Shown here piece by piece: positions 8,237 through 28,237 of a DNA stretch of 64,000 nucleotides. The translations under genes and the position numbers were made by a program. The DNA is from Candidatus Daviesbacteria bacterium (lineage in GTDB: Bacteria; Patescibacteriota; Microgenomatia; Daviesbacterales; UBA10151), in assembly GCA_016176335.1 (NCBI GenBank), contig JACOXI010000004.1, forward strand, positions 146,303 through 210,302, given 5' to 3'. The notes under the pieces were generated by a model, which was not told the origin of the DNA, did no database searches, and was given only the letters and a program-made list of their open reading frames with translations. Numbering within the stretch: position 1 is the first letter of the stretch; each line of letters begins with the position of its first letter.

Positions 8237-8283
8237 TTTTTTCTCTTTGCATCTTAGGTTCAGTTTTTGTAAAATCTGTTTAG

Positions 8284-8355: not shown

Positions 8356-8469
8356 CCATACGGATTTTATCGAACTGGCAACTTTTAGCTTCAAAAAGTT
8401 GCTGAAATTTGTCAAAATATAATCCTATAACCTTATACCCTAAGGGGAATCGAACTAGCCTTAGAGCTA

Positions 8470-8667
8470 TTATTTTTCCTCTTGTTCAGATTCTTCAAAA
8501 CTTCCCATCCACTTTGACCCGCCAGAATGGCGAGGCTCGCCTAAAGGCGGCCCATAAAATTCCTGCATAATTGTACAGCTTAATAGATAAACAACTTCTT
8601 GTATATCTTTTAGTTCTTCCTCAGATGCGTTAGGATAATATTTTTTGATTATTTCCAGCGGTAACAC
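8470..8667 (-). CDS. small hypothetical protein
   Basis: 65-aa ORF. A hairpin CTAAGG-N13-CCTTAG sits just downstream at 8437-8465 on its strand. Confidence 0.3.
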   Translation of the reverse strand: MLPLEIIKKYYPNASEEELKDIQEVVYLLSCTIMQEFYGPPLGEPRHSGGSKWMGSFEESEQEEK

Positions 8668-8872
8668 TATAAATCACCTCCTAACTTACTCAGGAAGCAT
8701 ATTTTATCTGACCAAGGAGTGCGATCGGTTCTGGAACTTGTATCTGCTACACTTCATTTATGACTTAAAATTTTTATGATAAATTTGCTCAAAAAGTCAA
8801 AGCATAGGAGAAAACCCCACCCTTCCAAATAACTATTGCAACTTACCAACCTTTTTGAAACAATGAAAGTAT

Positions 8873-9772
8873 ATGGAGATTAAAAATATCAATCAATCAC
8901 AAATTCCCATCCAAAATTCAATTAAAAATCAATCATCCATTACCTCAGTGAAGAACGAAAAGGGCAATTTCTTACCAATCATAGGAATAGTCTTATTGAT
9001 TTTTATTGTTGGTACAAGTGCATATTATTTTGGCACGCAACGAAGTAATACTGCTCAATACTCACAAAATACACCAAACCCTACTTATCAAAGCGCTCCT
9101 ACAAATGTACCTTCCCCAACCGCAAACCAATCTTCATCAACAAGTAAATTCCAATACAACTTAGTAAAAAAGACTGTGAAAATTTCAGATGAGAATATCA
9201 TAAATGCATTTTATCAGGATAATCCCTACATAGAGATAAGTGCAGCAATAGAAAAAATCGACCCATCTAATAACCAAAAAGAGACTGTTGTCAAACCATT
9301 ATCAGATAATTTATTAGGCAAAATGATTGCACCGAGTGGTTGTTGTGCAAAGAAGTATGATATTCTTCAACATCAAGCAGTGCAGAATGACTCTTATCTT
9401 CTCTTTATCAGAGATAAGTTTTATATAGTTGACCTAAAGACAAAGCTTATTAGTCAAATGCCAACTAATTACCCAAAGGCATTTGCATTACAGTTTGAAG
9501 TATCTCCTGATGAAAGATTTGTCTTTTTAAAGAGTGGTGATAGGCACTCGTCAAATTATCAAGAAGTTATTGATTTAACTAACAAAATCTTATACAAACT
9601 GCCTGAGTATTATGTTGGTGATGAGGTTTTTAATGTATTTAAAGGTTTTGATAAAGATAAAGTAATCATCGAAAGCTCGAAAGGCTTTGATAAGCAAAAT
9701 CAACCGCAAAATACAGTAAACCTAAGCACTTATCCTTCAAAAACATTTAATTTCACTTTCGTTACTCAGTAA
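8873..9772 (+). CDS. hypothetical membrane-anchored or secreted protein
   Basis: N-terminal TM helix, a low-complexity Ser/Asn/Gln linker and a C-terminal globular part. Confidence 0.6.
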   Translation: MEIKNINQSQIPIQNSIKNQSSITSVKNEKGNFLPIIGIVLLIFIVGTSAYYFGTQRSNTAQYSQNTPNPTYQSAPTNVPSPTANQSSSTSKFQYNLVKKTVKISDENIINAFYQDNPYIEISAAIEKIDPSNNQKETVVKPLSDNLLGKMIAPSGCCAKKYDILQHQAVQNDSYLLFIRDKFYIVDLKTKLISQMPTNYPKAFALQFEVSPDERFVFLKSGDRHSSNYQEVIDLTNKILYKLPEYYVGDEVFNVFKGFDKDKVIIESSKGFDKQNQPQNTVNLSTYPSKTFNFTFVTQ

Positions 9773-9985
9773 TCCTTTTTGCAAGGTGTTCCTATATTTG
9801 AAGATTTTGATTCGGGAAAGGACAAAAAAACATTACAAAAATATATAGAAAAGTTTTCGATCGATAAAGGTATTATGCTTTCTCGTCATCGTCTGGTAAT
9901 GGTTTTACAAAAAATAGCATAATCAATTAGGGCATAGCTGCAGAAGCTAATCCCCCCTCAAAAGGGCAATTCCTTCTATATTGTA

Positions 9986-10486
9986 TTGATTGAACCGGAA
10001 TCAAAAACTAAAGTGGATATTTTTGACTATACTCAATCTCCAAAAGAACTGGTAGGAGTTCCTTTTCATGGGTATGTAGTGAATATACAAAGTATTGAAG
10101 ACCAGCTTGTAAAAACAGTTCTTGATACCTCAAAAGTTGTAGACAGGATTGTGGTAGATCCCAAACAGTTCCAGGATGCCAGATTGATGATGCAGGCAGC
10201 TGATATGAAGAAGGCTGAAGAAAACTGGAAAAGCAGAAAGTTTAAAAAATATCCCAGATCATTAGTGAAAGCTTTGGAGAAAGCCTGGGATATTGTCAGG
10301 AAAAATCCTGATTTGAGTAAGGAAAAGCCACATAGAAAATCAAAACCCTACATCTGCCCAGATTGCTCGCCTCGCTCTCGCCTCGATTCAGCGAAGCGGT
10401 TCGCAGGCGAAGCGGGTGTAAGTACATTACGCTTTCCCATTACATCCATGCAGCAGATATACAAAACTTTAGGCTACATAGAGTAG
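9986..10486 (+). CDS. hypothetical protein
   Basis: 166-aa ORF. The C-terminal 20 residues are encoded by a GC-rich repeat element (10365-10417). Confidence 0.5.
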   Translation: MIEPESKTKVDIFDYTQSPKELVGVPFHGYVVNIQSIEDQLVKTVLDTSKVVDRIVVDPKQFQDARLMMQAADMKKAEENWKSRKFKKYPRSLVKALEKAWDIVRKNPDLSKEKPHRKSKPYICPDCSPRSRLDSAKRFAGEAGVSTLRFPITSMQQIYKTLGYIE

Positions 10487-10496
10487 TGAGGTAATT

Positions 10497-10928
10497 TTAT
10501 TGAAGATGTTGGGCCAGACGCCGTTTCAGGTTGATAACGCGCTCGCCAACTATCACATCCTGTTTGGTATGAGCTGAAAATCGCAGTTTAGCTATTTCAC
10601 TAAAACTTACCCATGAAAAAGCGCTTTCTTTTCGGGGGATAAATTTTTGAGGGCTTTTTACTTCGGCATAAAACACGTAATTAATTTTGTCCTGTGTGTC
10701 GTGAAAGTAATCATAGACAGGATAAATATGCTTCATTTTAAGGTTAACCTTCAGTAGCTTATGCACTATTCGCTGAAACGTATCCTCCGCGTCTTCCCCT
10801 TCTTTACTTTCCCCTCCCAACATAGACCATAAAGGCACTGTATTATCTTTTTGTTTGGATTGAAGCAAGAGAATTTGGTGAGTTTTTAGGCTGTAAAGGA
10901 ATCCGCTTGCATAAAACGATTTATGCAT
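10497..10928 (-). CDS. NUDIX hydrolase-like protein
   Basis: GGESKEGEDAEDTFQRIVHKLL resembles a Nudix box GX5EX7REUXEE, with divergent positions. Confidence 0.5.
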   Translation of the reverse strand: MHKSFYASGFLYSLKTHQILLLQSKQKDNTVPLWSMLGGESKEGEDAEDTFQRIVHKLLKVNLKMKHIYPVYDYFHDTQDKINYVFYAEVKSPQKFIPRKESAFSWVSFSEIAKLRFSAHTKQDVIVGERVINLKRRLAQHLQ

Positions 10929-10951
10929 GGGTGCATTTTAACACATAGGGC

Positions 10952-11830
10952 TTACAAATTAAAGTATTTATATACAGCCTCGGAGATTTTGGCAATTGTA
11001 TCGCTGGCAAAAGTGACATCCCCAGTTTCCGATAAAATGACAATTACAAAATCCCCATTTGGAGAATGAGCAAGCTCCTGCTTGCAGCAGTAAACTATGC
11101 CCGCGTCATTTCGGATATTGGGAAGCTCCCCAGTTTTGTGAGCAACTAAGGTGCCTTCAGGCAAGTATTTAGGGATCCGGTCATTCCTTTGCTGGGCCAG
11201 CAATAATTCAAGCATTTTTTGGGAGTATTCAGTATCTATGATTTCGCCCCTGTATATACCTTCAAACAACTTCCCCAAATCCGAGGCGGTAGTTTTAAAT
11301 TCAGTATCAATGCTTGATTCATCCAAGCTGTATTTTTCTAAAAATTTTCGTATTTCCCCTTTTCCAACTTTCTCGATCAGGGCAAAAGCGGCATAATTGT
11401 GTGAGATGACTATCATCTGCTCGAGCGCGCTTTTGATAGTAAAATTTACCACCCCTGTCTCTAAATCAGCATCCTCCTCCTTAGATTCGAATTTTTCATT
11501 CAGTGCGGCTACATCTGCTGTAATCGAGTCGTCCTCGCTTATTTGCCCTTCCTTAATTTTTGTCAGGACAGTACCCAAAACCCAAATCTTGTACAGACTG
11601 GCGGGTTGAAATTTGTCATGCTCGTTTCTAACATATGTTTCTTTGCTCTTGAAGTTTTTTATATAAATTCCATACCTGCCTTCGGAGTCTTTCAAAACAT
11701 TTTCAACCACACTTTTCAAATCATCATCTTTCAAACGGAATGAAAAGTTATATGACACAGGTTTGCCAAGTTGAGAATAAGTTATTAATCCTCCCATCAA
11801 AAGAATTAAAAGTAAGGCCACTTTCTTCAT
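10952..11830 (-). CDS. class A beta-lactamase-like serine hydrolase, secreted
   Basis: Signal peptide. SxxK (ASLYK), an SHN element in place of SDN, and a KTG (AHKTGE) motif. Confidence 0.65.
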   Translation of the reverse strand: MKKVALLLILLMGGLITYSQLGKPVSYNFSFRLKDDDLKSVVENVLKDSEGRYGIYIKNFKSKETYVRNEHDKFQPASLYKIWVLGTVLTKIKEGQISEDDSITADVAALNEKFESKEEDADLETGVVNFTIKSALEQMIVISHNYAAFALIEKVGKGEIRKFLEKYSLDESSIDTEFKTTASDLGKLFEGIYRGEIIDTEYSQKMLELLLAQQRNDRIPKYLPEGTLVAHKTGELPNIRNDAGIVYCCKQELAHSPNGDFVIVILSETGDVTFASDTIAKISEAVYKYFNL

Positions 11831-11842
11831 TGAAAGGATATC

Positions 11843-12256
11843 TTAGAGGTTTTGCAGATCTGCTTCAACTGTGGCGAATTCTGTTTCCAGATCCAAAACA
11901 TTAACCTTATTTAATTCCGTATCCAATACGTCTTGGGTTTGAGGCGAAGATGGAGTCTGAATCTGACTTGGCTTTACCCCTCTATTATTTACATAAAAGT
12001 ATGCTCCTCCTATCAAAACAACTGCTATTACCAAACCTGCAACCATTATAAGAATCATCTTCTTTGAGGATTTGGGAGGCTCTCCACCAACAGGGGTAGA
12101 GGGTTGTTGAGATTGGGGTGAGTTCATACTCGGCACCTGAGGCGCTGATGGTGCAGGTTGAGGCACTGGACTTGGGTTTATCGAATTTAGGTCGTTAGAC
12201 CGCAAGCTTTGCTTATTATTGTCCATTTGATACATCTCCTTCATTGGATTTAGCAA
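11843..12256 (-). CDS. hypothetical Pro/Ser/Gln-rich membrane-anchored protein
   Basis: Low-complexity N-terminus, a single TM helix and a C-terminal coiled segment. Confidence 0.5.
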   Translation of the reverse strand: MLNPMKEMYQMDNNKQSLRSNDLNSINPSPVPQPAPSAPQVPSMNSPQSQQPSTPVGGEPPKSSKKMILIMVAGLVIAVVLIGGAYFYVNNRGVKPSQIQTPSSPQTQDVLDTELNKVNVLDLETEFATVEADLQNL

Positions 12257-12905
12257 CTCTTATGGCATTGGCAACTTTTTGCTTGGCATCAATGACCAGT
12301 TTTCTTAATTGTCCCAGGTCGGTGCGTAACTTCTCTTTTACTCCTTGCATATCTTTTCGTACGGTAGCTTCTGATGTGGCCTCTAGCACATAATCTTTAT
12401 CTGCTTGGAGCGCAACTGCTTCGTTGGCAGAGGATATGGCACCCCTTGCGTCGGCTATAGCGCTTCTTACTGCTGCCGGATCCTTAATATCTTTTGTGCC
12501 TGCGTTAACCCTTGCTTCCAATTTATCCAGAATACCTGACATGACTCCTAAATGTATATTCATGGCCCCAGTTACTTTTTCATTGATATTGGCCAAATTG
12601 ACATTTACTCTTTCTGCAATTTGAGCCTTTTTCTGATCTTTGAAATTTTGTAGCCTTGCTTTCAAAGCTGCTTCTTTTGTGGCAATACGCTCTTTTAAAG
12701 CTGTTAATCTTTCCTGAACGTTCGCTTTCCTTGTTTCTACTCTAGTTTCTTTTCTATCTCGAAGATTAGTTTTCCCGGTGGTTCCGGAGGTAGTTGCATC
12801 TTGCGCTAAAACAGCAGTTGCGGATAAAAAAATAAATAATAAGGTTAGGAAAATCGTTGTTAATTTGGAAAGTAGACCATTGGCAGTTGCAGTCATTACC
12901 TTCAA
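12216..12905 (-). CDS. hypothetical secreted coiled-coil protein
   Basis: Signal-peptide-like N-terminus. Lys/Glu/Ala-rich heptad-like sequence. Confidence 0.55.
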   Translation of the reverse strand: MKVMTATANGLLSKLTTIFLTLLFIFLSATAVLAQDATTSGTTGKTNLRDRKETRVETRKANVQERLTALKERIATKEAALKARLQNFKDQKKAQIAERVNVNLANINEKVTGAMNIHLGVMSGILDKLEARVNAGTKDIKDPAAVRSAIADARGAISSANEAVALQADKDYVLEATSEATVRKDMQGVKEKLRTDLGQLRKLVIDAKQKVANAIRVAKSNEGDVSNGQ

Positions 12906-15422: not shown

Positions 15423-16226
15423 ATGGGTATTTTAACTGTCTTGCCATGCTGTTTTATTTTTTTATCATTTATCAATTTTAATCCCCTGCTTTCCTTGGAA
15501 AGAACTTTTGCCCAACCTATTTACCAGCTTAAGAAAATATTTAACCCCCAAATAATTAAACCTAAAAATAGCTACACCATAGTTTTGGTAGGTGATTCCA
15601 TGACCGATTACCTGGGTTCTGCCGACTATTTGAAAGAAAACCTCAAAACTTATTATCCCCAAAAGCAAATAAACATAAAAAACTTTTCTGTCGGATCAAC
15701 CAACATCCTGACCCTGCCGGATCGTTTACAAAACCTGACCAATTATAATGGCAAAATTTCCCAAGCTATTCTAAACACGGACTTTGATTTGATACTGATC
15801 GAATCTTTTGGTCATAATCCCCTGTCTGAATTTTCCCAAAATGACGGACTTAAAAAGCATAATGAGGTTTTAGATCAGGCTCTGGTAATGATAAGGCAAA
15901 GGCAACCACAAGCCCGGGTCATCTTTTTGGCCACCATTGCTCCGCATCTGGACAGGTATGCTGAAGGGGTTGCCAACCTCACAACGGAAGTAAGAAGGGA
16001 GTGGGCAAAACAAAGAGCAGCCTATATCAAAAATCATATCGAATATGCCAAAAGGCATAAATTGCCTTTAATTAACATTTATGAAAAATCTTTGGATGGC
16101 GGGGGAGGAGGAAATATAGATTATATTAATACAGGAGATTTCATACACCCTTCCCCCACAGGCATTAAATTTATCAGCAGGGAGATTGCAGATTTTATAT
16201 TTAAGAAGCGGATATTGCCCTTGTAG
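15423..16226 (+). CDS. SGNH/GDSL family hydrolase
   Basis: N-terminal signal or TM. VLVGDSMTDY GDS block. C-terminal DxxH-like FIHPS. Confidence 0.65.
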   Translation: MGILTVLPCCFIFLSFINFNPLLSLERTFAQPIYQLKKIFNPQIIKPKNSYTIVLVGDSMTDYLGSADYLKENLKTYYPQKQINIKNFSVGSTNILTLPDRLQNLTNYNGKISQAILNTDFDLILIESFGHNPLSEFSQNDGLKKHNEVLDQALVMIRQRQPQARVIFLATIAPHLDRYAEGVANLTTEVRREWAKQRAAYIKNHIEYAKRHKLPLINIYEKSLDGGGGGNIDYINTGDFIHPSPTGIKFISREIADFIFKKRILPL

Positions 16227-18166: not shown

Positions 18167-18211
18167 TTATATTTTAAATCTTCTGTCAGATAAATATGGA
18201 TTGGGTTTACG
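18167..18211. repeat. 45-bp direct repeat, copy 2 (the genuine 3' end of dinB)
   Basis: See copy 1. Confidence 0.8.
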
Positions 18212-19390
18212 GCGGATATCCGCGGTTCCTAAAAGTATTCCTCTTTGCAGAGTAAATTCACCGTAGCGGTTATTTATGCTATCAATTGTTTGTATGACCT
18301 TTTCTTGCCGACTGATTTCAGGCAAAAGACTCAAATTTTGAGGATTTTGTGGCTTCAGATTAGAGATAGACACACCAATCATACGGATCTTACCTCCAGG
18401 CCATATCTGATTAAAAATTTTCCAAGCAGTCTTAAATATCTCCAGCCCGTCATTGATATATGGAATGGTTATCTGCATACTTTCTCCATTAAACACTTTC
18501 CCAGCTGATCGGTACCAACAATGGACAGTTTTACCAACCAATTTTTTCGCCCGCAATCTTCGGGCTATTAATTCTGCTAGCTTAAATAGAATTTGCTTAA
18601 TCTCCACCGAATCATCAGTGTCGTGGTCAATGGTGTGCCGGTGGCCTATTGATTTGACCTCTGTTTTTTGCCAAAAAGGAATAATTGGACTCTCATCTAT
18701 TCCCCTGGCCATGTTATACAAGATTTGACTGTAACTTTTAAATGAGGCTAAAAGCCACGGTAAAGGAACCTGGCGCAGAGTCTTGAAGTTAAATATCCCC
18801 ATGTTGTTAAGTCTTGTTTTAATCCTTGATCCTATGCCGCAGATTTGATCTAGGTTGATGGTATCCAATATCGCAATGGCTGCTTTTTGATCAGGAATAA
18901 CCACCAAACCATCAGGCTTTTGTAAAGATCCGGCCAGCTTGGCCATTAATTTGTTGTATGAAATCCCAATTGAACAAGTGATCCACTCACCTACTTCTTG
19001 CTGTATACGTTTTTTGATCTCTTGAGCCAATTCTACTGTACCCTGTAACCTGTTACCTGTAACCTCTAGAAACACTTCGTCAATTGAAAATACTTCCAAA
19101 TATGGGCTGTAGTCCTTTAAAATACCTAAAAAACGTTTAGTTACCTCCAGATACTTATCAGAATCCCCTTGAACCAAAATAATTTGCGGGCATAATTTTT
19201 TAGCCTCCCATATTTGCATTCCTGTTTTTACTCCAAACTGTTTAGCCTCAATAGAGGCTGCCCCAATTACTGTCCTTTCCATACGATCTCCACCAGTTAC
19301 CCCAATAGGTTTTCCTCTTAATCTGGGATTTGCCTGTTGTTCAACAGTGGCAAAATAGCTGTTAAAATCAATATGGATTATGCTTCGCAT
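18167..19390 (-). CDS. dinB: DNA polymerase IV (Y-family)
   Basis: IDFNSYFATVEQ N-terminal motif. Palm, thumb and little-finger architecture over 407 aa. Confidence 0.9.
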   Translation of the reverse strand: MRSIIHIDFNSYFATVEQQANPRLRGKPIGVTGGDRMERTVIGAASIEAKQFGVKTGMQIWEAKKLCPQIILVQGDSDKYLEVTKRFLGILKDYSPYLEVFSIDEVFLEVTGNRLQGTVELAQEIKKRIQQEVGEWITCSIGISYNKLMAKLAGSLQKPDGLVVIPDQKAAIAILDTINLDQICGIGSRIKTRLNNMGIFNFKTLRQVPLPWLLASFKSYSQILYNMARGIDESPIIPFWQKTEVKSIGHRHTIDHDTDDSVEIKQILFKLAELIARRLRAKKLVGKTVHCWYRSAGKVFNGESMQITIPYINDGLEIFKTAWKIFNQIWPGGKIRMIGVSISNLKPQNPQNLSLLPEISRQEKVIQTIDSINNRYGEFTLQRGILLGTADIRRKPNPYLSDRRFKI

Positions 19391-19461: not shown

Positions 19462-19704
19462 CTATTCTTCCTCTACTGCCTCTAATATCCACTTCATCTT
19501 ACTGGTATCCAACCTTAATCTATAAAAGTTCCCGCCAGATGATACTGAAAAGTGGTAAAAAGTATTGCTGCCATTTTTAGAGGTATGGACTAAATTAATT
19601 TTTTCCACCTTAATTTGCCTGCCATGCCAGAAGAAATAAGAAGGGTGAATTTGACTGCCTTGAAAAAACACCCAGACATTAACAGGCTCTTGAATTTCTA
19701 GCAT
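19462..19704 (-). CDS. hypothetical protein
   Basis: 80-aa ORF upstream of dinB on the same strand. Confidence 0.4.
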   Translation of the reverse strand: MLEIQEPVNVWVFFQGSQIHPSYFFWHGRQIKVEKINLVHTSKNGSNTFYHFSVSSGGNFYRLRLDTSKMKWILEAVEEE

Positions 19705-19751: not shown

Positions 19752-21705
19752 TTATCTACGAAGCAGTCTTTCGAGAAGCGATCTATGATCCTGAGAGGGT
19801 TTACCGCTCAAGTGTCCTATGAGTATTGGTTGGGAGGTCTCTACTCTTTGTATTCTTCTTGCCAAGATCTGATCTGGGGTTAAATGACCAAACTCCAGTT
19901 CAACCCAAATCATATCTTCCCTGATAGCCAAAGCTGTAGCTAAAGGGTTACTTTGAGCTCCCCCTTTAGGTTCTCTAATAATCTTGTCTATTAGACCTCT
20001 CTCCGCTAAGAAACTGGCTGTGGGTTTCATTCCTTCGGCTGTCCTGATGATATCCTCATAAGTAGGATTTTATATAATATTTGTGCTGCTGATCTGGGTT
20101 CTGCCACATACTCCTGGGCGCCTTCTAACATAGCCGCATAATCAGTTGTAAAATCCAAAGCTAGGTGTCCTCCGCTACCGCCTACCCCTATCAGGTAGCC
20201 ACTGGTAAAATAAGGAAAGTCCAATTGAGCTTTTAAACCGTAGGCAATCCCTCTAAATTGAGTAGCTAACTCATCCTCTATTTTAGGCCTGGCACCAAAA
20301 GTGTGAACAAATGTAGTAATTTGATACTTTAATCTTTCTGCATACGATATTACTGCTAACTCATATTGATAATCCCAGGCAGTAGGATTAGAGTGAGATT
20401 GATCTATGGAGATTTTTCCATCGGGTCTTTGAATATAGCTGGGTTGATTACCTATCACCATTCTCATCAACCTTTTTGAGAGTCTGGGATCATCAATATA
20501 GGCTAAAGCGGCTACTATAGGAGGATACCTTAGATATTTGCTATCGTCTCTCCCGCTTGCTACTTTACCTGAAAACAGAGGTACAAAACCATCAAAAGTA
20601 TGTTGCAGGATGTATAAAGTGTCTGGCCGCCTAAGATCCCCGCTTAAAACCTTATGCTGATCCCAGACTGTTTCTGGTTTAATTGGAATAAATACCATTG
20701 GTAAATCTGCTCTTCGGTGTGACCTTAATACTCTACCTGGTCTAAAAGGTACATGAAAACCATTATGATCAAAATTTATACCGGTAATTTCACGATGATG
20801 TCTCGGTTTAGCAGGGGGTTGATCGGCATTAACTATAATATCCAGCTTCCTTTGCAAATAATTCAAGAGCTCTGCCAGATTATTTAGAATAACATGCACA
20901 GCTCTATTGTTTTCAAAACTATTTTCCACTGTTTGAGCCTCGGCAGGTGGTGTTTTACTCTCATATTCGCCAATAACATCAGGACCGGCAAAACCCATAT
21001 TGCTATTTACCATACCAATTACCGAGTCTGCCATCGGTAATCCGCTGGCAGTCAGACCTCCCCAAACATTTCCCACCAGTACAAACACCAAGGGCTGGTT
21101 AGTTTCTTTCTTAAACTGGTTTAGAGCATGAACAGTTCTTTTCATTTCTCTTAAGCCGCTACTCCTTCTTGTTGTCTTTGTCCACCCGAAGCACAAACTA
21201 CAATCATAGGCACATTAGCTTGGATAGCCAAATTCTTAGCTCTAATAAATTTTTCTCCGGCTACCACCCCCGAAGTACCAGCCATAAACTCCCAATTAAA
21301 AATAATTCCCATAAAATTATTTTTACCCAAAGTACCAATCCCGTATGAGACTGCTTCATTTCTACCTTTTTGGCGTTCCTTAGCCATTTTCTGCTCATAG
21401 GTCTCAACTGTTCCATCAGGTAATACTCTTTTTAAGCCTACGGGATCTTTGATAACTACTAAGTCACCATCTAATTCACGGAGATGAACAGCTCTCCTAA
21501 AAGACTGCATAAAGGCTGGAACATCAATTTTCGGCCTCCCTTCCAAAAAATGTAAATTTCTAAACAAGGCTAGAGAAGCATCCCCCGGATGATCGCCAAT
21601 AATATCAGGGGGAATGTTGGGTCCGTCAGCTTCCGGGTTTGTTGCACTCATTTTAGGGGGTATCTTAACAGAAAAAATTCTGCTAGTAAATGATGGCTCT
21701 TGCAT
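19752..21705 (-). pseudogene. fused acetyl-CoA carboxylase carboxyltransferase (AccD-like beta domain + AccA-like alpha domain), interrupted by two frameshifts
   Basis: Three consecutive ORFs in different frames: 21705-21151, 21196-20027 and 20030-19752. Beta-subunit motifs FMAGTSGVVAGEK..CASGG.RQQEG. Alpha-like GVGGSGGHLALDF.. and C-terminal REPKGGAQSNP. A 1-nt shift near 21155 restores QEGVAALREMK. Confidence 0.6.
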
Positions 21706-21753
21706 TTTCTTATAAGGCCTGATATATAATAAACCCTCTGCCTGCTTTTAAAT

Positions 21754-22626
21754 ATGCCGGCACAGTTTGAATTAGAACCATCCGAAGCTGCCTTAGAAAA
21801 AAGAGCCTCCCGCTCTAATGTAATGATTCACGGAACAATCGGTAATGAATTTGCCGGGAAAGTAGCAATAGTTACAGGTGCCAGTAAATTAGAACCAATG
21901 GGTATTGGGGCTGCTACAGCAATAGAGCTTGCCAGGAGAGGTTTGAGAGCTGTCACTATAACTTCCACTCTGGAAAGTGAATCTCGAGCTAAAGAAACTG
22001 CCAAAAGAATTGCTCAAGAGGGAACCTACGTTTTATGGATGGGGGTAGACCATCGCCAAACAGTCGATAATATAGCAGTTGTTGAAGAAACTGTTGGAAA
22101 GTTTGGAGAAGTAAATTACTTAGTTGGCAATGCGGGCAGAATGCACATTAAACCATTACTTCGGGAAACTCATGAAGCCATTGATGATGATCTTAGTTTG
22201 ATGTTAGGGGCTCATGCCCATATGTCCAAAGCTTTAATTGATATTTGTCGACGCACTAAGACCTTAGATAGATTACATGGGATTGTTTTTGTGGGAAGTG
22301 TAATTGGGGATTTAGGAAGCATAGGTCAGATTGGTTACGGGACAGCTAAATCAGGGATAGATGGATTAGTAAGAAACCTTTATTTAGAACTGGGACATTA
22401 CGGAACTCGTGTCAATGCCATTCATCCTGGTTTTGTAGCTACAGAAATGACACAAGCTTTGCAGGGTGAACAGGGAGAAGCTTTTGCCCAAAAAAGGATT
22501 GTCCTAGGAAGAATGGCCCAACCTGAGGAAATTGCTAAAACCGTAGCATTTTTATTAGGACCAGATGCAAGCTATATTACTGGAACTTCACTGGTAGTTG
22601 ATGGTGGATTAAAATTTTTTGGATAA
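21754..22626 (+). CDS. SDR family oxidoreductase (FabG-like ketoreductase)
   Basis: KVAIVTGAS..GIG. NAG. YGTAKSG (Y-x3-K). PG. IHPGFVAT. Confidence 0.8.
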   Translation: MPAQFELEPSEAALEKRASRSNVMIHGTIGNEFAGKVAIVTGASKLEPMGIGAATAIELARRGLRAVTITSTLESESRAKETAKRIAQEGTYVLWMGVDHRQTVDNIAVVEETVGKFGEVNYLVGNAGRMHIKPLLRETHEAIDDDLSLMLGAHAHMSKALIDICRRTKTLDRLHGIVFVGSVIGDLGSIGQIGYGTAKSGIDGLVRNLYLELGHYGTRVNAIHPGFVATEMTQALQGEQGEAFAQKRIVLGRMAQPEEIAKTVAFLLGPDASYITGTSLVVDGGLKFFG

Positions 22627-22628
22627 AT

Positions 22629-24236
22629 ATGGAATCAGATAGAGAATTAACATCAAACAACTTACCTCTGGCTGGAAAAACTGCATTCGTTACAGGAGGA
22701 AATCGTGATATTGGTGCAGGAACAATTCGAGCATTGGCTCGTCTTGGAATAAGTAGAGTAGGCAGTATTCATCGAGATGAAAGAAAGGCAAAACGTGAGC
22801 CAGATGTTGTTAATTATGCTGCTGCACATGGGACAGATGTTAAATTTACTCTCGGAGATATTACGACACCTGAAGGTATACAAACAATTGCAAATATGAC
22901 AAACACTGAACTTGGAGGAAATTTAGATATATTAGTATTAAATACTTCTGGCCAAGGAAGAGATGTAAATGTAGTTGCTGCGAATGCAATTGTTGACGCT
23001 CTTTTACCCAAAATGAATCCGGGTGGAACAATTATGTTCAGACAAAGTGTTCCGGGGCATTATTATGAAGAACTTAGGCAACAAGGACGAGAAGGAGAAA
23101 TTCCAGAGTTTTATAGAGGAATTGCAGAAGTAAAAGGTGAAGGAGAGAAAACACTTCGTGCAAGAATTCCTGAGTTTAATGCCAAAGGGATAAGATTTTT
23201 AGTAGATTGTCCCCCTGAGGTTGCGGGTACAGGTAATATTAGATTATTTACCCGATTCGATAGAAGTTTTTCTGAAAAACACCGAGCACTTCTAGCATCT
23301 TTAGGACTTCCTCATATTATTCCTATCGAAGCAGTTGCACATGTATCTTCTCAAATGCTTGCAAATTCAAATCTGCCAACTGGGTATATAGAACTTTACA
23401 GAGAAACTCGAGATGTGCGCGGACCGCTTTCAAGATTCTATACGGATAGAACAACATATGCAGATCAAGTTAATGACAGATATAATTTTGCCACATTTAC
23501 AGTTCCAGAAACACACACTGATCGAAGTAATGAACCAGCGAATATAGAAGCCATCGAGTTTACGCAGGAAGGTGCAGTTGCCACAACTCACATAACAAAA
23601 GCTCATGCAAAAGATCATTTTAGAGATGAAGTTGGTTTAAATCCTCTTCCTTTGCATAAACAGGTACGAACAGTAGTAGAAGTTGCAGGTGCGATAGTAA
23701 ATAATGGGTCAGATTCACCAAAACGAGTAAGACTTTCTTCATTTGATGGAATACAGTGCATGGGAGCAATTATTCCAGGAACAACAATGGAAACAAGAAT
23801 TACTGTGACGGATCGAAACGATACTTCAATGACCTTTGATGTCCAAATTTCGCGCGATGGAAAACCAGTCACTTCAATGCAACAAGTAACTTGTATTGTA
23901 GAAGATGCCCCATCCTTGGAACAGGAATTACGGGAAAAGTTCTTATTAGAGGATCAAATTATAGAAACAGCAGCGCAAATGGCAGGAATGTTATCTTGGA
24001 ATGCAAATCAAGGGCAGGATTTTTCCCCGCTATTTTTATCAGTGGGTTCGGGCAGATTTTTTGAAAGAGCAAAGGCTGGAGATATCCTAACAGGATTAAT
24101 TAACACCAGACCAACAAGGAGAGGGTCAGACTCAGATGTGCTAATGATAACTGATGGAAGAGAATTAGCAGATATAAGGAGAATTAACTCTATCGTTGTA
24201 AGAACTAATGTTGTCAGAAGAATTTTAGGAATTTAA
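22629..24236 (+). CDS. two-domain protein: atypical SDR-like N-terminal domain + C-terminal hotdog (MaoC/dehydratase-like) domain
   Basis: N-terminal GKTAFVTGGNRDIGAGTIRALA. C-terminal about 130 aa with a hotdog-like pattern. 535 aa. Confidence 0.6.
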   Translation: MESDRELTSNNLPLAGKTAFVTGGNRDIGAGTIRALARLGISRVGSIHRDERKAKREPDVVNYAAAHGTDVKFTLGDITTPEGIQTIANMTNTELGGNLDILVLNTSGQGRDVNVVAANAIVDALLPKMNPGGTIMFRQSVPGHYYEELRQQGREGEIPEFYRGIAEVKGEGEKTLRARIPEFNAKGIRFLVDCPPEVAGTGNIRLFTRFDRSFSEKHRALLASLGLPHIIPIEAVAHVSSQMLANSNLPTGYIELYRETRDVRGPLSRFYTDRTTYADQVNDRYNFATFTVPETHTDRSNEPANIEAIEFTQEGAVATTHITKAHAKDHFRDEVGLNPLPLHKQVRTVVEVAGAIVNNGSDSPKRVRLSSFDGIQCMGAIIPGTTMETRITVTDRNDTSMTFDVQISRDGKPVTSMQQVTCIVEDAPSLEQELREKFLLEDQIIETAAQMAGMLSWNANQGQDFSPLFLSVGSGRFFERAKAGDILTGLINTRPTRRGSDSDVLMITDGRELADIRRINSIVVRTNVVRRILGI

Positions 24237-24261
24237 TTTTGAAAGAAGTTATATAAAAAAT

Positions 24262-25632
24262 ATGTCAGGATATGTTGAATCATCTACATATTGGGAATCT
24301 GCCAGAGCCAGAGGTGTGACTTTAAACAGAACTCCCGAAACTCGGGTAGTTGTAACCGGGATAGAGGCTATGACTCCTTTAGGATATCTCTCGGAAACCA
24401 TGCAAGCATTCCGGGAAAGTCGATCAGGGGTAATTTCCAGGGAAGTTGGAAATTGTCATACCAGACTTCAGGCCCCTCTTCCTGAATTATTTGATCCGAT
24501 GAGTGAGCTTACTAGAGAAGAGAGAAAAATGATGGGCTTTTTAGGTGCAATGGAGGTTGTGATTGCTCGAAGAGCCGGCAAAGCAGCAGGAGTAATTGGA
24601 GAAAATGGCCGATTATTGGATAGGGTAGCTCATAAAAATAGGGTTGGGGCATGGATTGGCAGCGGTATTGCAGAAGCTCCATATTTAATTGAGGTGGATA
24701 AACACTTGCATCGGGAAGTTAATGGTGTGGTAGATCCGGTGGCAAACTCCCGCCGTATTTCACCGACCTTAGCAGTCAGAGTTTTTCCAGAAGAACCAAA
24801 TGGAGATGTAGCAAGATTACTTGGTTTATCAGGAGAAAGTGGTAACACTGTCGAAGCTTGTGCTACAGGCGCTTCCAATATATATCATGGATATAAGTCA
24901 ATCTTAAGTGGAGAAAATGATATTGTTTTTGTCGGAGGTTTTGAAGAAACTCTTAGGGAGCATGCCAGAATGGTTCTTGGTATTTTTGCCGGTATTAACG
25001 CTCTATCTACCAGAAACGATAGCCCGGAAACTGCCAGTAGGCCATTTGATAGTGGTAGGGATGGTTTTGTGGCAGCTTCCGGTGGAGCATTGTTAGTTTT
25101 AGAGGGATTAAATCACGCATTAAGAAGGGAGGCCCCAATTTTGGCTGAAGTTTTAGGAGCAGCCAAATCAATTGATGGGCATGCTAAGACCGAATCACTC
25201 CCACTTCGGATTGCAGATACTATTGCCCAAGCACTTTATGATCCTTCTACAGGAGGACTTTGGAAACCTGACGGGTTTTTTGCTCATGCTACTTCCACCC
25301 AAATAGGCGATAAAAATGAAGCTGAAGCTTTTCAGCTTGTTTTTGGTGATGAAACTGGAGATATTCCGGTTACTGCCATTAAATCGTTTATAGGGCATAC
25401 TTTAGGAGGAGCTGGAGCTGTTAATGCTGCCGTAGCAATACAATCTTTACTGGATGGAGAAATTCCTCATATTCTGAACTTACAAAACCCCGATCCTGAA
25501 ATTACTAACGCAGTAAAGATGACCTTTGTCAGAAATCATTTTATGAAACATCCGATGAGAACTGCATTAGCAGTGGCTTATGGTTTTGGCGGGTATAATT
25601 GTGCATTACTACTTGGGAGGTATATACCTTAA
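24262..25632 (+). CDS. beta-ketoacyl-(ACP) synthase (KAS I/II-like, thiolase fold)
   Basis: Active-site VEACATGASN. Catalytic His motifs FAHATSTQIGD and GHTLGGAGA. ASRPFD. Confidence 0.88.
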   Translation: MSGYVESSTYWESARARGVTLNRTPETRVVVTGIEAMTPLGYLSETMQAFRESRSGVISREVGNCHTRLQAPLPELFDPMSELTREERKMMGFLGAMEVVIARRAGKAAGVIGENGRLLDRVAHKNRVGAWIGSGIAEAPYLIEVDKHLHREVNGVVDPVANSRRISPTLAVRVFPEEPNGDVARLLGLSGESGNTVEACATGASNIYHGYKSILSGENDIVFVGGFEETLREHARMVLGIFAGINALSTRNDSPETASRPFDSGRDGFVAASGGALLVLEGLNHALRREAPILAEVLGAAKSIDGHAKTESLPLRIADTIAQALYDPSTGGLWKPDGFFAHATSTQIGDKNEAEAFQLVFGDETGDIPVTAIKSFIGHTLGGAGAVNAAVAIQSLLDGEIPHILNLQNPDPEITNAVKMTFVRNHFMKHPMRTALAVAYGFGGYNCALLLGRYIP

Positions 25633-25634
25633 TT

Positions 25635-26501
25635 ATGGCAGCCGAAGATAACGCCTCTAGAATTAATCATCCTTTCCAAGATGGCAGAATGAATTTTACT
25701 GCTTTCTCCCGCTGTCTCGAATACCGTAGAGAGGTTGCAGAGTTAATGTTGGAAGCTTTGCCTTATCTTCCAGAAAGATTTACTCAGGTTGATATTGGTG
25801 CAGGGAATGGTCTAGGCACTCAAGTAACAAAAGGAATGACAGAAGTATTTTTACGGAGGGCAGCAGTCTACGGTATAGATCCTGACCCGTATGCCATAGC
25901 GCAAGCTTCCAAAGATACCCCATCTTCTGAAAGGTGTGAAATTGCTTTCATAGAAGGATTTGGTCAGGACATTGAAACTTTAGTGGCAGGCAGAATTCCT
26001 AAGGAAGGGGCTGATATGGTATCTATATTAGATGCAGTGCATGAATTTCCACCTGATGCTCAGTTCCCCATTATACAAGCTGGGGCACGGGTTTTAAGAC
26101 CTGGTGGAATCTTTGTGATGAATAGTACTTTTACCTCAATTGCTACGGAGGAAAACCCGGCTGCATGGGGTTTCCCGGCAGTAAAAGCAGCATTAAAGTT
26201 TGGAGGAAGGAAGGCCAAACAACCAGGTCTTCTTCAGAGGCCTCCGGAAGAATATACACAAATGCTTCGAAACACGGGCTTAGAGGTAATTTATTATCAG
26301 GTTGTAGGTGTAACATTACCAACCAGTGCAATGGTAGCTATTTGTCAGTATCCGGGATTTGTAGAAGGTGTCAGAAAAAGTTTTGTATTTGATAATGAGC
26401 CAACCTTGGAGCAGTTAAGCGAGGAGCTTCAGATACGTTATGGGAAATCTAGGCCGCTGCCGCGTAAATGGGTTCGATGGATTGGTCAAAAACCTGCTTA
26501 A
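25635..26501 (+). CDS. class I SAM-dependent methyltransferase
   Basis: VDIGAGNGLGT motif I. The start is placed at ATG 25635 just after the KAS stop. The track ORF 25599 overlaps the KAS. Confidence 0.7.
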   Translation: MAAEDNASRINHPFQDGRMNFTAFSRCLEYRREVAELMLEALPYLPERFTQVDIGAGNGLGTQVTKGMTEVFLRRAAVYGIDPDPYAIAQASKDTPSSERCEIAFIEGFGQDIETLVAGRIPKEGADMVSILDAVHEFPPDAQFPIIQAGARVLRPGGIFVMNSTFTSIATEENPAAWGFPAVKAALKFGGRKAKQPGLLQRPPEEYTQMLRNTGLEVIYYQVVGVTLPTSAMVAICQYPGFVEGVRKSFVFDNEPTLEQLSEELQIRYGKSRPLPRKWVRWIGQKPA

Positions 26502-26527: not shown

Positions 26528-28237
26528 ATGAGCAAGTTTAACATTACCTTAGGACTTCTGTTTTTCCTGTTCGTTATTCCCTGTATCATGTTTCCTGCCT
26601 ATGCTATAGTTGATCCCCTGTCTGTTCCCAATAACAAATTTGGCATCCATATTATCTCCGCCACCCCCAATGAATCCTCTCCTGCTGCCCAGCTTGTCAA
26701 TACCAACGGAGACTGGGGTTATCTGACCTTCCTCATAGAGAGTAAGGATAGAAATGAAAATAAATGGCAGACATTTTTTAATGATCTAAGGAGGCGTCAC
26801 CTTATTCCCATTGTTAGACTGGCCACAAAACCCGTCAATGAGCATTGGGAAAAACCCTATGAGGGGGAGGAAGAAGCTTGGGCAGATTTTTTAGATAAAT
26901 TAAATTGGCCTACCAAAAACAGATACATTGTCATTTATAATGAACCTAACCATGGCAAAGAATGGGGCAATGTTGTTGATCCTGCCACATATGCCAAAGT
27001 TTTGGATAAAACCATTGATGCTTTAAAAGAAAAATCTCCGGATTTCTTTGTAATGAATGCCGGCTTTGATGCTTCAGCCCCACACCAACCACCCAATTAC
27101 TTTGATGAGGTTAGTTTCCTGTCGGAAATGGATAAGTCTGTCCCGGGTATATTTGAAAAACTGGATGGATGGGTTTCACACTCCTATCCTAATCCCGAGT
27201 TTGCAGGTTCACCAAATGGAATCGGGCGAGGAACAGTTAGAACCTGGTTTTGGGAACTGCAGCAATTAAGGATTCTGGGAGTAACTAAAAATCTTCCTGT
27301 TTTCATAACTGAAACAGGTTGGAAACATGCCGAGGGGTTAGTGTATAATCCCAACTTTCCAGCTGAAGACACTATTGCAAATTATTACAGAAATGCTTTT
27401 GAGGATGCTTGGTCCGCCCAACGTATTGTGGCTGTAACTCCTTTTATACTCAATTACCAGCAATTCCCCTTTGACCATTTCTCTTTCAAAAAAGTTAACT
27501 CCGACAGCTTTTATACTTCTTTCCAAACTATAAAAGATCTGCCCAAGACAAAGGGACAGCCCATATGGGAAAACTTAGCAAAGCTGACTAAGGGTGAAGT
27601 TTATTCTTCTGTGGTGGCAGGAGAAACATATACTATCTACCTTACATTTGAGAATGTTGGTCAATCCATTTGGAATGGCTCCACAGGTGATCAGGTAAGA
27701 TTGATTCCTTTGGAAGGAGGAAAAGAATTAGGTATTTCAGAAATTGAATTACCCAAGGATAAAAAGATTGAACCAGGTCAAAACTATACTTTTACCATTA
27801 AACTCAAAGCTCCTAAAAGCGGCTCTTTTAAAGTATCTTTAAATTTATTTGAGGGTCAAAAACCATTTAATTCAAAGCCTTTACAATTTACCACCCAGGT
27901 TAAAGCACCTGTCATCTTAAAAATCCTGACCAAATTAAAATGGAAGGATTCGGCAGCAGGAGAGTATATTTTGAAAACCTCTGGGGCAATCGGTGAATCC
28001 ACCCAAAAGGTGATTATAAATTCGGCCGGCAGATCCGAACAATTTGAAGCCAGGTACCTGTTGCCTGATTACACCTTTAAATTCAGTTTGGAAAGACCCA
28101 ACTACAAACTTCAAACCATCCAACAAACTCTCAAAAGCGGTGAAAATACCCTTAATTTTGGAGAACTCCAACCTGATCTTATATCAAATATCTTTAATCC
28201 TTTAGAGCTTTGGAAACTTCTTCCCTTTTCAAAATAA
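26528..28237 (+). CDS. secreted glycoside hydrolase, clan GH-A (GH5-like), with C-terminal beta-sandwich domains
   Basis: Signal peptide. NEPNHG (catalytic acid/base Glu) and ITETGW (nucleophile Glu) motifs. About 250 aa of C-terminal extension. Confidence 0.6.
   Translation: MSKFNITLGLLFFLFVIPCIMFPAYAIVDPLSVPNNKFGIHIISATPNESSPAAQLVNTNGDWGYLTFLIESKDRNENKWQTFFNDLRRRHLIPIVRLATKPVNEHWEKPYEGEEEAWADFLDKLNWPTKNRYIVIYNEPNHGKEWGNVVDPATYAKVLDKTIDALKEKSPDFFVMNAGFDASAPHQPPNYFDEVSFLSEMDKSVPGIFEKLDGWVSHSYPNPEFAGSPNGIGRGTVRTWFWELQQLRILGVTKNLPVFITETGWKHAEGLVYNPNFPAEDTIANYYRNAFEDAWSAQRIVAVTPFILNYQQFPFDHFSFKKVNSDSFYTSFQTIKDLPKTKGQPIWENLAKLTKGEVYSSVVAGETYTIYLTFENVGQSIWNGSTGDQVRLIPLEGGKELGISEIELPKDKKIEPGQNYTFTIKLKAPKSGSFKVSLNLFEGQKPFNSKPLQFTTQVKAPVILKILTKLKWKDSAAGEYILKTSGAIGESTQKVIINSAGRSEQFEARYLLPDYTFKFSLERPNYKLQTIQQTLKSGENTLNFGELQPDLISNIFNPLELWKLLPFSK

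Follow-up and report, generated by a model that had tools for sequence, protein, structure and literature searches.

A probable FAS-II-like operon with a fused SDR–double-hotdog protein beside a carboxyltransferase pseudogene in a Daviesbacteria genome

CPR bacteria are generally held to be unable to make fatty acids, and in bacteria that do make them with a type II fatty-acid synthase (FAS-II) the carrier gene acpP usually lies within a fab operon. According to the available text of one account, Nealsonbacteria, a CPR group, carry FAS-II homologs without AcpS or FabD, and ACP-independent synthesis has been raised as a possibility (Probst et al. 2020, PMC7242380). Two further precedents bear on what follows: the use of FAS-II to lengthen exogenous fatty acids (PMC11586512), and the Asn-Xn-Ser-Xn-Tyr-X6-Lys signature of BsFabL, which departs from the classical Tyr-x3-Lys (PMC9260719).

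We analysed a 64-kb stretch of DNA (the window) from Candidatus Daviesbacteria, a groundwater bacterium with a tiny genome, that holds a four-gene plus-strand operon and a minus-strand carboxyltransferase pseudogene (Table 1). The operon, in which the ketoreductase (KR), didomain, ketosynthase (KS) and methyltransferase (MT) genes are separated by 2, 25 and 2 nt, appears to encode every step of chain extension, two of them fused in one protein, plus a methyltransferase. An earlier sequence-only reading had described a tightly spaced, type-II FAS/PKS-like module, perhaps in a reduced-genome host; the tight spacing, the type-II FAS/PKS-like character (KS, KR and dehydratase, DH) and the reduced-genome host are supported, NCBI naming the proteins as those of Candidatus Daviesbacteria, a CPR bacterium. 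We lean, with modest confidence, towards a FAS-II-like acyl-chain elongation operon of a CPR lineage whose carrier is encoded elsewhere.

Table 1 Features of the locus, in window coordinates
Feature	Position	Strand	Basis or remark
GDSL lipase/acylhydrolase	15423..16226	+	Pfam Lipase_GDSL_2; 4 kb upstream of module
Fused AccD(beta)-AccA(alpha) carboxyltransferase pseudogene	19752..21705	-	Three frames; Pfam and NCBIfam AccD/AccA matches
Carboxyltransferase piece, AccD N-part	21705..21151	-	Own reading frame
Carboxyltransferase piece, AccD C-part and AccA	21196..20027	-	Own reading frame
Carboxyltransferase piece, AccA C-end	20030..19752	-	Own reading frame
Carboxyltransferase frameshift 1	21151..21157	-	1-nt deletion: L001 GCT CTA AGA vs window GCT TAA GA; stop 21153..21151
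Carboxyltransferase frameshift 2	20060..20080	-	Non-triplet deletion, A-rich stretch TATAAAATCC, in place of L001 segment 'SGKRR'
FabG-like 3-ketoacyl reductase, classical SDR	21754..22626	+	adh_short_C2 2.4e-42; YGTAK = YxxxK
SDR-plus-hotdog didomain, 535 aa	22629..24236	+	Domain matches, AF2 models
Didomain N-half, SDR with FabL-type enoyl-reductase signature	22629..23453	+	N114, S140, Y162-x6-K169
Didomain C-half, FabZ-type double-hotdog dehydratase (predicted)	23454..24236	+	Family profile, AF2 fold
KAS I/II-type ketosynthase	24262..25632	+	fabF model end to end; Cys200/His342/His379 triad intact
Class-I SAM-dependent methyltransferase	25635..26501	+	Methyltransf_11/12/25; most likely start ATG 25635, per gene calls on identical contigs
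Secreted or membrane-anchored protein, 569 aa	26528..28237	+	26 nt downstream of methyltransferase; module membership uncertain

With bacterial type II FAS the module shares a discrete Cys-His-His ketosynthase, a FabG-like ketoreductase, a dehydratase with FabZ-type His and Glu residues and an SDR with an enoyl-reductase signature, and its relatives add FabD-like, FabH-like and AccD/AccA-like genes. Unlike that system, acpP and acpS are unlinked, the predicted enoyl reductase (ER) and dehydratase are fused in one protein, the dehydratase takes the form of a pseudo-dimeric double hotdog that has one composite site, a methyltransferase adjoins as an obligatory neighbour, the host belongs to the CPR, and the module proteins score far under the curated cut-offs for FabF, FabG and AccA/D. 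The Nealsonbacteria homologs are likewise FAS-II-like genes of CPR bacteria without ACP-processing genes, as far as the available text of that account goes (PMC7242380); the lineage here is Microgenomates (Daviesbacteria, Levyibacteriota), and an ER-DH fusion, a linked methyltransferase, a mosaic module and a carboxyltransferase pseudogene do not figure in that same text.

Two of the proteins match familiar FAS-II enzymes in kind, and the earlier assignments of an SDR ketoreductase and of a KAS I/II-type ketosynthase with intact Cys/His/His residues stand. The ketoreductase has the YGTAK motif (YxxxK), in line with the Asn-Ser-Tyr-x3-Lys pattern of FabG-type reductases, and no Yx6K, and its best NCBIfam models are FabG equivalogs (170 bits, under their cut-offs). 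The ketosynthase aligns with TIGR03150 (fabF) over residues 28-451 against 2-406/407 at 259 bits, below the cut-off of 494 bits, and shares C200, H342, H379 and K374 with FabB and FabF, as expected of an elongating FAS-II ketosynthase. Its relatives form a graded series of identities from 88% down to 37%, the named members of which are CPR bacteria, whereas ordinary FabF proteins reach only 33-37%. The clade holds about 75 clusters above the FabF score level, and most of its occurrences are in genomes of CPR bacteria (Daviesbacteria, Levyibacteriota).

The didomain is the most unusual component. The proposed SDR-hotdog architecture is confirmed by AF2 models of an SDR-fold N-half (pLDDT 90.4) and a double-hotdog C-half (pLDDT 88.5), but the accompanying label of a 'KR-DH' fusion is probably wrong, and the N-half is a candidate enoyl reductase. 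Its catalytic residues N114, S140, Y162 and K169, which do not vary in family alignments of 18 and 10 members, spell the FabL-type Asn-Xn-Ser-Xn-Tyr-X6-Lys signature on a classical NADP(H) Rossmann motif, and the Gly motif, TGGNRDIGAG (TGGxRDIGAG in the family), is of the NADPH type. The family is small, with ~20 full-length members among 1.84 billion representatives and 34 matches at E <= 1e-30. A Yx6K SDR adjoins the ketosynthase in ~17 non-redundant loci. This SDR may be joined to a double hotdog or to a single one, or may stand by itself, though still between KR and KS; in two loci (L009 and L014) the didomain occurs without a ketosynthase within 4-10 kb. The stand-alone SDRs beside the module are all YxxxK and none is Yx6K, so the KR and ER roles appear to be separate. 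With B. subtilis FabL, the NADPH-dependent enoyl-ACP reductase III, the fused SDR has in common the Tyr-X6-Lys signature, the classical SDR scaffold and a TGxxxxIG-type NADP(H) motif; it differs in having 21 residues from Ser to Tyr, in its fused dehydratase, in a catalytic half without significant similarity, and in that its ER role is a prediction made here. Because the catalytic half does not significantly match FabI, FabL or InhA in sequence and Foldseek ranks classical ketoreductases, including polyketide KRs, above a single FabI match, the case for an ER depends on the signature together with pathway logic.

The C-half places a His330 motif, 'DHF..LPLHKQ', in hotdog 1 and a Glu446 motif, 'LLEDQIIETAAQ', in hotdog 2. 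The two motifs, which show little or no variation in the family, correspond to the catalytic His and Glu of FabZ/FabA dehydratases, and the family profile finds only FabZ in the PDB (best E 1.2e-5), with IExAAQ aligned on FabZ IEAMAQ. Foldseek places the mammalian FAS DH region first, with PKS DH domains and hotdog thioesterases next; at the level of the fold, double-hotdog thioesterases score about equal to dehydratases. The type I FAS/PKS dehydratases (mammalian FAS DH, CurF/CurK DH) have the same double hotdog, with His in the first and an acidic residue in the second, but carry HxxxGxxxxP and DxxxQ/H where the C-half has FabZ-like motifs (GHF..PG, IExxAQ); the C-half, moreover, lies outside any megasynthase, and its partner ER would be an SDR rather than an MDR.

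The order of SDR and double hotdog also recalls the arrangement of peroxisomal multifunctional enzyme type 2 (MFE-2), which likewise acts on 3-hydroxyacyl/enoyl thioester substrates. In contrast to the didomain, with its Tyr-x6-Lys and FabZ-like hotdog, MFE-2 combines Tyr-x3-Lys with a MaoC-type hydratase motif, uses CoA esters and is catabolic. The didomain has no MaoC match in Pfam and FabZ as the only PDB match of its C-half profile, and an MFE-2-like dehydrogenase/hydratase identity was set aside for the lack of a MaoC match and for the Tyr-x6-Lys spacing.

Given a FabL-signature N-half and a FabZ-type C-half, the operon would encode KS, KR, DH and ER. The ketosynthase would condense acyl and malonyl thioesters, and the FabG-like SDR would reduce the 3-keto group. 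The double-hotdog half could then dehydrate the 3-hydroxyacyl intermediate, using the FabZ-type His of hotdog 1 and the Glu of hotdog 2, and the fused N-terminal SDR, with its FabL-type signature and NADPH-type Gly motif, would reduce the enoyl product. The always-linked SAM methyltransferase may act on either primer or product. The operon encodes no carrier (ACP with its synthase), malonyl transfer or malonyl-CoA supply, and these would have to be provided by other parts of the genome or by the host. The most likely role, we infer, is to lengthen or remodel acyl chains that have been scavenged, and not full de novo synthesis.

The methyltransferase, correctly recognised in the sequence-only reading, belongs to the class-I fold family, and a related enzyme accompanies the ketosynthase in at least 12 related loci. 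BioC, the malonyl-ACP O-methyltransferase, was considered for it and rejected: the window protein has no TIGR02072 match at E <= 0.1, the BioC matches of five of the six module methyltransferases are weak (best 6e-10) and no better than their UbiE matches, and the module neighbourhoods showed no bio genes.

Searches with phmmer seeds and PROSITE PS00012 found no ACP, PPTase, BCCP or FabD-like acyltransferase (AT) in the 64-kb window, and FabH (KAS III) is missing there too. The predicted local absence of ACP, acyltransferase, FabD and FabH thus holds for the entire window; of the FAS-II complement, ACP with holo-ACP synthase and FabD with FabH are not encoded there and must act in trans, if used at all. 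FabH-like KAS III genes do occur in relatives (L012, L013 and L017). FabF-type ketosynthases and FabD normally need ACP and none was found, so a working pathway rests on genes outside the region seen.

Several features would also fit a specialised-metabolite, type-II PKS-like cluster, in which a KR-DH or MFE-2-like didomain performs no enoyl reduction and the product is an unsaturated or hydroxylated, methylated acyl signal or surface lipid under Crp control. An obligatory methyltransferase beside a ketosynthase is more typical of secondary metabolism, Crp-family regulators are linked to the module in four relatives (L001, L017, L055 and L056) though not in the window, two KS genes occur in L001, the accessory genes vary between loci in a mosaic way, and both the ketoreductases at the top of the N-half Foldseek ranking and the MFE-2-like domain order would suit such a cluster. 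We nevertheless judge it rather unlikely. The invariant Tyr-x6-Lys has the spacing of an enoyl reductase and not of a ketoreductase, a separate classical KR usually adjoins, and the C-half matches FabZ and not a MaoC hydratase-2. Both KS proteins of L001 keep the active-site Cys, so the pair contains no CLF, and genes for ACP, cyclase, thioesterase and export are absent.

That the module operates independently of ACP is a more doubtful proposition. It draws on the 379 kb from 30 related loci (flank visible up to 10 kb per locus) in which no ACP, AcpS/Sfp or BCCP was found, on the scarcity of FabD-like acyltransferases, missing from most loci, and on the Nealsonbacteria homologs described, in the available text, without AcpS or FabD (PMC7242380). 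A flank of at most 10 kb per locus, by contrast, leaves room for ACP elsewhere in these genomes, and the FabD-like malonyl transferases of L001, L056 and L016 point to ACP as their acceptor. To our knowledge, moreover, FabF-type ketosynthases and FabZ-type dehydratases are ACP-dependent in all characterised cases. It is improbable, in our estimate, that these bacteria have a self-sufficient synthesis or elongation route without canonical ACP, running on CoA or another carrier and built on a FabL-like ER/FabZ-like DH fusion with a dedicated methyltransferase; within such a route, the fusion of a FabL-like ER to a FabZ-like DH would, no less tentatively, be previously undescribed. If the ACP-free route were true, at least some Microgenomates would be producing or tailoring acyl chains themselves, against the standard view of CPR bacteria as lipid auxotrophs.

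The state of the carboxyltransferase raises the question of whether the cluster as a whole is on its way out. The minus-strand gene had been read as a fused AccD-AccA protein split into three frames, and both the domain matches and an intact homolog agree: the three pieces are colinear, at 56-61% identity, with the 657-aa protein of L001, whose closest solved homologs are the ACC carboxyltransferase beta subunit, over residues 61-286, and the alpha subunit, over residues 330-610. The breaks fall at L001-protein residues 171/172 and ~526-532, with no further stops, and the beta and alpha crotonase-fold domains remain recognisable. Four independent assemblies (L002, L003, L005 and L007) have exactly the same sequence at frameshift 1, frameshift 2 is present in L002 and L003, and the window sequence is identical in seven read sets. 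Searches of the window and of the related loci gave no BCCP-like ORF as its partner. An accessory fused AccD-AccA carboxyltransferase has recently become a pseudogene in this genome.

Extending this to the remaining genes, so that the module would be a non-functional remnant after loss of the carboxyltransferase (malonyl-CoA supply), acyltransferase and regulator, seems very improbable to us. The two frameshifts fit it, as do the absence from the window of the acyltransferase, Crp regulator and second KS of L001, and dN/dS values that are higher in the didomain (0.44, which could reflect relaxed constraint) and the ketoreductase (0.31, vs L055) than in the ketosynthase (0.09-0.11, vs L055, L056 and L058). 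Against it, none of the four core ORFs is truncated or lacks a catalytic residue that is invariant in its family, dN/dS is below 1 in every one of them (0.11-0.44), and the read sets agree. Most relatives with an intact core (L013, L012, L055 and L058) also have neither carboxyltransferase nor acyltransferase nearby, so both are accessory. The earlier suggestion of a decaying cluster is therefore right for the carboxyltransferase and wrong for the four core genes, which are intact and under purifying selection.

Elevated GC and lateral acquisition had also been proposed. The 6.75-kb cluster region is the nominal GC maximum of the window (0.412 vs 0.392 overall), but an excess of 2 points (z = 1.7) hardly amounts to the 'noticeably higher' GC that had been reported. 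The cluster genes have GC3 values of 0.20-0.32, which do not exceed the mean over genes (0.33), and tetranucleotide distance is ordinary, with 9% of equal-size windows equally far or farther. With so small a GC excess and GC3 unraised, composition gives no sign of transfer within the window. Exchange of DNA does happen, as mosaic identities and a 4.5-fold dS discordance between adjacent genes show, and in L059, from a genome of 60% GC, an MT-KS-KR trio adjoins a phage-type integrase; the exchange observed, however, is between versions of the same module. A recent acquisition from a FAS-II-bearing donor outside the CPR is highly improbable given this ordinary composition, the lack of an integrase or transposase near the window module, the graded CPR ketosynthase series and the conserved setting in L001, where the module lies between the same two flanking genes (62-70% identical to those of the window).

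Two named cluster types were likewise rejected. An aryl-polyene pathway, floated in the sequence-only reading, would call for two ACPs, a KS/CLF pair, two DHs, an aryl-activating ligase and LolA/MMPL-type export genes but no ER, and does not fit a locus with one KS, an ER-type SDR, no ACP pair or CLF, and no export genes among the neighbours examined; an aromatic type II PKS would have a KS-beta (CLF, Gln for Cys), ACP, and cyclases or aromatases, none of which is present.

Finally, two neighbours recur beside the module. Homologs of the 569-aa protein downstream (62-66% identity) adjoin it in L001, on the same side, and in L058, on the opposite side and strand; glycosidase-like matches of this protein are weak (GH5, E 0.003; PslG, E 0.5). 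A GDSL lipase is encoded close to the module in the window and in both L010 and L057, and the window enzyme is a possible functional associate that could serve lipid salvage. The L057 lipase is 52% identical to it and adjoins an AMP-binding enzyme (acyl-AMP ligase).

ORF listing and Pfam/NCBIfam matches agree on the gene content proposed by the sequence-only reading: four closely packed plus-strand genes (spacings of 2, 25 and 2 nt), hereafter the module, beside a fused AccD-AccA carboxyltransferase (CT) split into three minus-strand frames. Elsewhere the window carries seven tRNAs and genes of housekeeping type, and neither an integrase nor a transposase lies close to the cluster. The NCBI protein names of the didomain and the KAS identify the host as Candidatus Daviesbacteria, of the CPR/Microgenomates lineage. 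Directly beside the module, 26 nt after the methyltransferase (MT) gene, is a gene for a 569-residue protein with an N-terminal signal or transmembrane segment (26528-28237), which, given the short gap, may be co-transcribed with the MT. Homologs at two related loci (L001, 10396-12108; L058, 3-1403, minus strand) are 62–66% identical and lie on differing sides and strands; similarity to glycosidases is faint (GH5, E 0.003; PslG, E 0.5). On the other flank, an 80-residue ORF (19462-19704; weak DUF6504 match) adjoins a DinB-type DNA polymerase IV gene (18167-19390), and the two may form a functional unit, since the ORF is 70% identical at the L001 edge.

Coordinates and strands of the cluster genes in the window
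Feature	Position	Strand	Source
CT piece 1 (AccD-AccA order)	21705..21151	minus	ORF listing, Pfam/NCBIfam
CT piece 2	21196..20027	minus	ORF listing, Pfam/NCBIfam
CT piece 3	20030..19752	minus	ORF listing, Pfam/NCBIfam
FabG-like SDR (ketoreductase, KR)	21754..22626	plus	Pfam/NCBIfam
Didomain, 535 aa, SDR at N-terminus	22629..24236	plus	Pfam/NCBIfam
KAS I/II ketosynthase (KS)	24262..25632	plus	Pfam/NCBIfam
Class-I SAM methyltransferase	ATG 25635..26501	plus	Pfam/NCBIfam

Searched exhaustively with HMMER, 1.84 billion representatives yielded 34 proteins matching the didomain at E ≤ 1e-30, ~20 of them full length, and closer didomains occur at L055, L056 and L058. Residues N114, S140, Y162 and K169 of its N-terminal half are invariant in an 18-member alignment, and a second alignment, of 10 catalytic halves, agrees. 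The classical SDR/KR signature is Asn-Ser-x10-Tyr-x3-Lys; the NADPH enoyl-ACP reductase FabL of B. subtilis carries Asn-Xn-Ser-Xn-Tyr-X6-Lys on a classical scaffold, and Tyr-Lys spacings of x5 to x8 are found in other enoyl reductases (PMC9260719). The stand-alone SDRs adjoining the module are all YxxxK proteins, none having Yx6K. The initial description of the didomain as a KR-dehydratase fusion is probably wrong, given this invariant FabL-type Tyr-x6-Lys signature and the separate YxxxK SDRs beside the module. In an AF2 model of the didomain (pLDDT 90.4, pTM 0.88), Foldseek assigned the N-terminal half to the SDR fold without telling KR and enoyl reductase (ER) apart, and a profile of the catalytic half found no significant sequence match in the PDB, so the ER call rests on the signature and pathway logic, which together make an enoyl reductase the fairly probable identity of this half. 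The C-terminal half matched only FabZ in profile searches of the PDB (best E 1.2e-5); its invariant IExAAQ aligns with the catalytic-Glu motif of FabZ, and a FabZ-like GHF..LPGH His motif lies ~115 residues upstream. Folded alone (pLDDT 88.5), this half is a double hotdog whose best structural match is the dehydratase (DH) region of mammalian FAS; hotdog thioesterases and PKS DH domains rank next. Most likely, then, the didomain joins an ER of FabL type to a pseudo-dimeric DH of FabZ type, a predicted enzyme architecture that is new and testable, and read as an ER-DH it gives the operon KS, KR, DH and ER. A ~418-residue form, with a Yx6K SDR and a single hotdog bearing both His and Glu motifs, occurs at L018/L045 (143-1396), L044 (226-1485), L046 and L052; the double hotdog of the window could have arisen from this form by duplication, or the single hotdog by deletion.

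The window and ~20 related loci define a compact operon that is under purifying selection and, by motif and fold, encodes the four reactions of an elongation cycle, regularly in company with an MT and in no case with an ACP gene linked to it. Named hosts are Daviesbacteria, Levyibacteriota/Levybacteria and one 'Patescibacteria group' MAG. Three typical module loci of 36–44% GC (L015-L017; GTDB records CAZKYX01, CAYRYY01 and CAZQSX01) are titled 'uncultured Gammaproteobacteria', labels that look doubtful; L015 is 99% identical to L010. Two module-embedded proteins of L056, of 436 residues before KR (5495-6805) and 224 residues after MT (11606-12280), lack a Pfam match.

Gene order at module loci (L-numbers) and protein identity to the window (%)
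Locus	Gene order	KR	Didomain	KS	MT
Window	psi-CT, then KR, ER-DH, KS, MT				
L001	CT, Crp, FabD-like AT, then KR, ER-DH, KS, KS, MT	49	66	34	none
L055	TPP-enzyme, Crp, then KR, ER-DH, KS	83	89	88	not comparable
L056/L057, first part	MT, Crp, AT				
L056/L057, continued (identities for L056)	436-aa unknown, KR, ER-DH, KS, MT, 224-aa unknown, AMP-binding enzyme, GDSL lipase	75	23	70	29
L058	KR, ER-DH, KS, MT	32	25	77	38
L013 = L019 (Ca. Levyibacteriota)	KR, ER-DH, KS, MT, FabH				
L012	KR, ER-DH, FabH, MT				
L010, L017	ER-DH, KS, MT, +/- FabH and Crp				
L016	KR, ER-DH, AT				
L018, L044	single-hotdog SDR, then KS				
L050, L051	KR, free-standing Yx6K SDR, KS, MT nearby				
L054	KR, free-standing Yx6K SDR, KS				
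L047, L048	free-standing Yx6K SDR, KS, MT nearby; KR not detected alongside				
L009, L014	didomain alone				

Identity to the window is discordant from gene to gene, as is dS between neighbouring genes in the comparison with L055, the window's closest relative (KR 0.34, didomain 0.125, KS 0.57), indicating that the core recombines as cassettes among carriers with variable arms. DNA homology between the window and L055 is confined to 21841-25641. Across window 21754-25632 and L055 2180-6057, sliding DNA identity varies from 0.73 to 0.97 within the KAS gene, a pattern suggestive of intragenic recombination tracts. Values of dN/dS (KR 0.31, didomain 0.44, KS 0.11; 0.09–0.11 in the deeper comparisons of KS with L056 and L058 and of KR with L056) place the core under purifying selection. 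Such cassette recombination bears on how reduced genomes retain and lose pathways.

The proposal that the cluster is decaying holds for the CT, which is broken by two frameshifts, but not for the selected core. L001 carries an intact 657-residue fused CT; the solved homologs nearest to it are ACC CT-beta for residues 61-286 and ACC CT-alpha for residues 330-610. The three window pieces are colinear with this protein (56–61% identity), with two frame breaks and otherwise without stops. At the first break one nucleotide is deleted (GCT CTA AGA in L001, GCT TAA GA in the window), and the second is a deletion of non-triplet length within A-rich sequence. The window is matched at 100% identity by seven Logan assemblies from different runs, of which four span the first break and two the second; sharing of the breaks by independent assemblies excludes assembly error. 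Programmed frameshifting is unlikely, as a slippery motif is missing, the reading frame of the L001 ortholog is unbroken and the lesions are plain deletions. The CT is a real, recent pseudogene. At L055, a 426-residue thiamine-diphosphate enzyme (17-1297, minus strand; TPP_enzyme_N, E 1.7e-6) and a Crp-family regulator fill the CT slot, and this enzyme might be the source of an alternative starter unit.

Bacterial FAS-II is the closest known system, from which the module differs in having no local ACP/AcpS, FabD, FabH or intact ACC. Of the earlier suggestion of a type-II FAS/PKS-like module in a reduced-genome host, the FAS-like character and the CPR host stand, whereas the module does not belong with aromatic type-II PKSs; nor does it have an aryl-polyene architecture or fall with MFE-2 or BioC systems. 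The window MT is a generic Methyltransf_11 protein, with weak similarities to UbiE, BioC, Mtf2 and ArsM that are all far below cut-offs and point to no particular acceptor, giving no support to a part in BioC-like pimelate synthesis. Across 30 loci totalling 379 kb, searches turned up no ACP, AcpS/Sfp or BCCP. The lone PROSITE phosphopantetheine pattern match is an antisense ORF within a KAS gene, and the two small module-linked proteins of L010 and L017 (110 and 294 residues), considered as cryptic carriers, lack both a DSL motif and homologs in the other loci. FabD-like acyltransferases (ATs) in three relatives imply an ACP acceptor somewhere.

Our analyses establish the catalytic motifs, folds, conserved gene linkage and selection of the module. 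In the proposed cycle, KS would condense on an acyl thioester, followed by FabG-type reduction, FabZ-type dehydration by the C-terminal half of the didomain and FabL-type enoyl reduction by its N-terminal half, with the carrier, malonyl transfer and malonyl-CoA presumably coming from outside the operon. GDSL lipases/acylhydrolases are encoded no more than a few kb from the module in the window (15423-16226), L010 (16137-16835) and L057 (6299-7108), the last being 52% identical to that of the window and adjoining an AMP-binding acyl-activating enzyme. The lipases at three loci and the L057 AMP-binding enzyme suggest that the module may serve to salvage exogenous acyl chains and lengthen them; E. 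faecalis, whose FAS-II elongates exogenous acids, provides a precedent (PMC11586512). One account states that CPR bacteria are generally held unable to make fatty acids and treats the origin of their membrane lipids as an open question, and passages of the same paper describe Nealsonbacteria FAS-II homologs without AcpS or FabD and raise ACP-independent synthesis (Probst et al. 2020; PMC7242380). The limited literature searched contained no description of an ER-DH fusion, a linked MT or this module in Microgenomates. The operon offers a definite candidate, amenable to cloning, for extending or tailoring acyl chains in CPR and, if a carrier is absent genome-wide, would constitute an ACP-independent bacterial pathway.

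The cluster had also been taken for a lateral acquisition of noticeably higher GC. Its GC (0.412 vs 0.392 for the window) is nominally the maximum among 6.75-kb stretches, but z is just 1.7. In the cluster genes GC3 (0.20–0.32 vs a gene mean of 0.33) is not raised, so the excess sits in codon positions 1-2, and tetranucleotide distance is unremarkable, being equalled or exceeded in 9% of windows of the same size. These results provide no compositional evidence for recent transfer. Moreover, the L001 module has the same two flanks, a DUF6504-like 80-residue ORF (70% identical) and a 569/570-residue protein (62%), and relatives of the window KS are graded, at 88, 82, 78, 77, 75, 72, 71, 70 and 64% identity, with ~65 clusters below them at 37–49% and canonical FabF at 33–37% (≤224 bits). 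Shared flanks and graded relatives argue for descent within a lineage and against import from a FAS-II organism, and lateral acquisition also sits poorly with the absence of nearby mobility genes. At L059, a locus on a 591-kb contig of 60% GC, an MT-KS-FabG-like KR trio (7659-12198) directly follows a phage-type integrase; its KS is 47% identical to that of the window, a terminase gene lies at the locus edge, and the trio may be mobile in non-CPR genomes.
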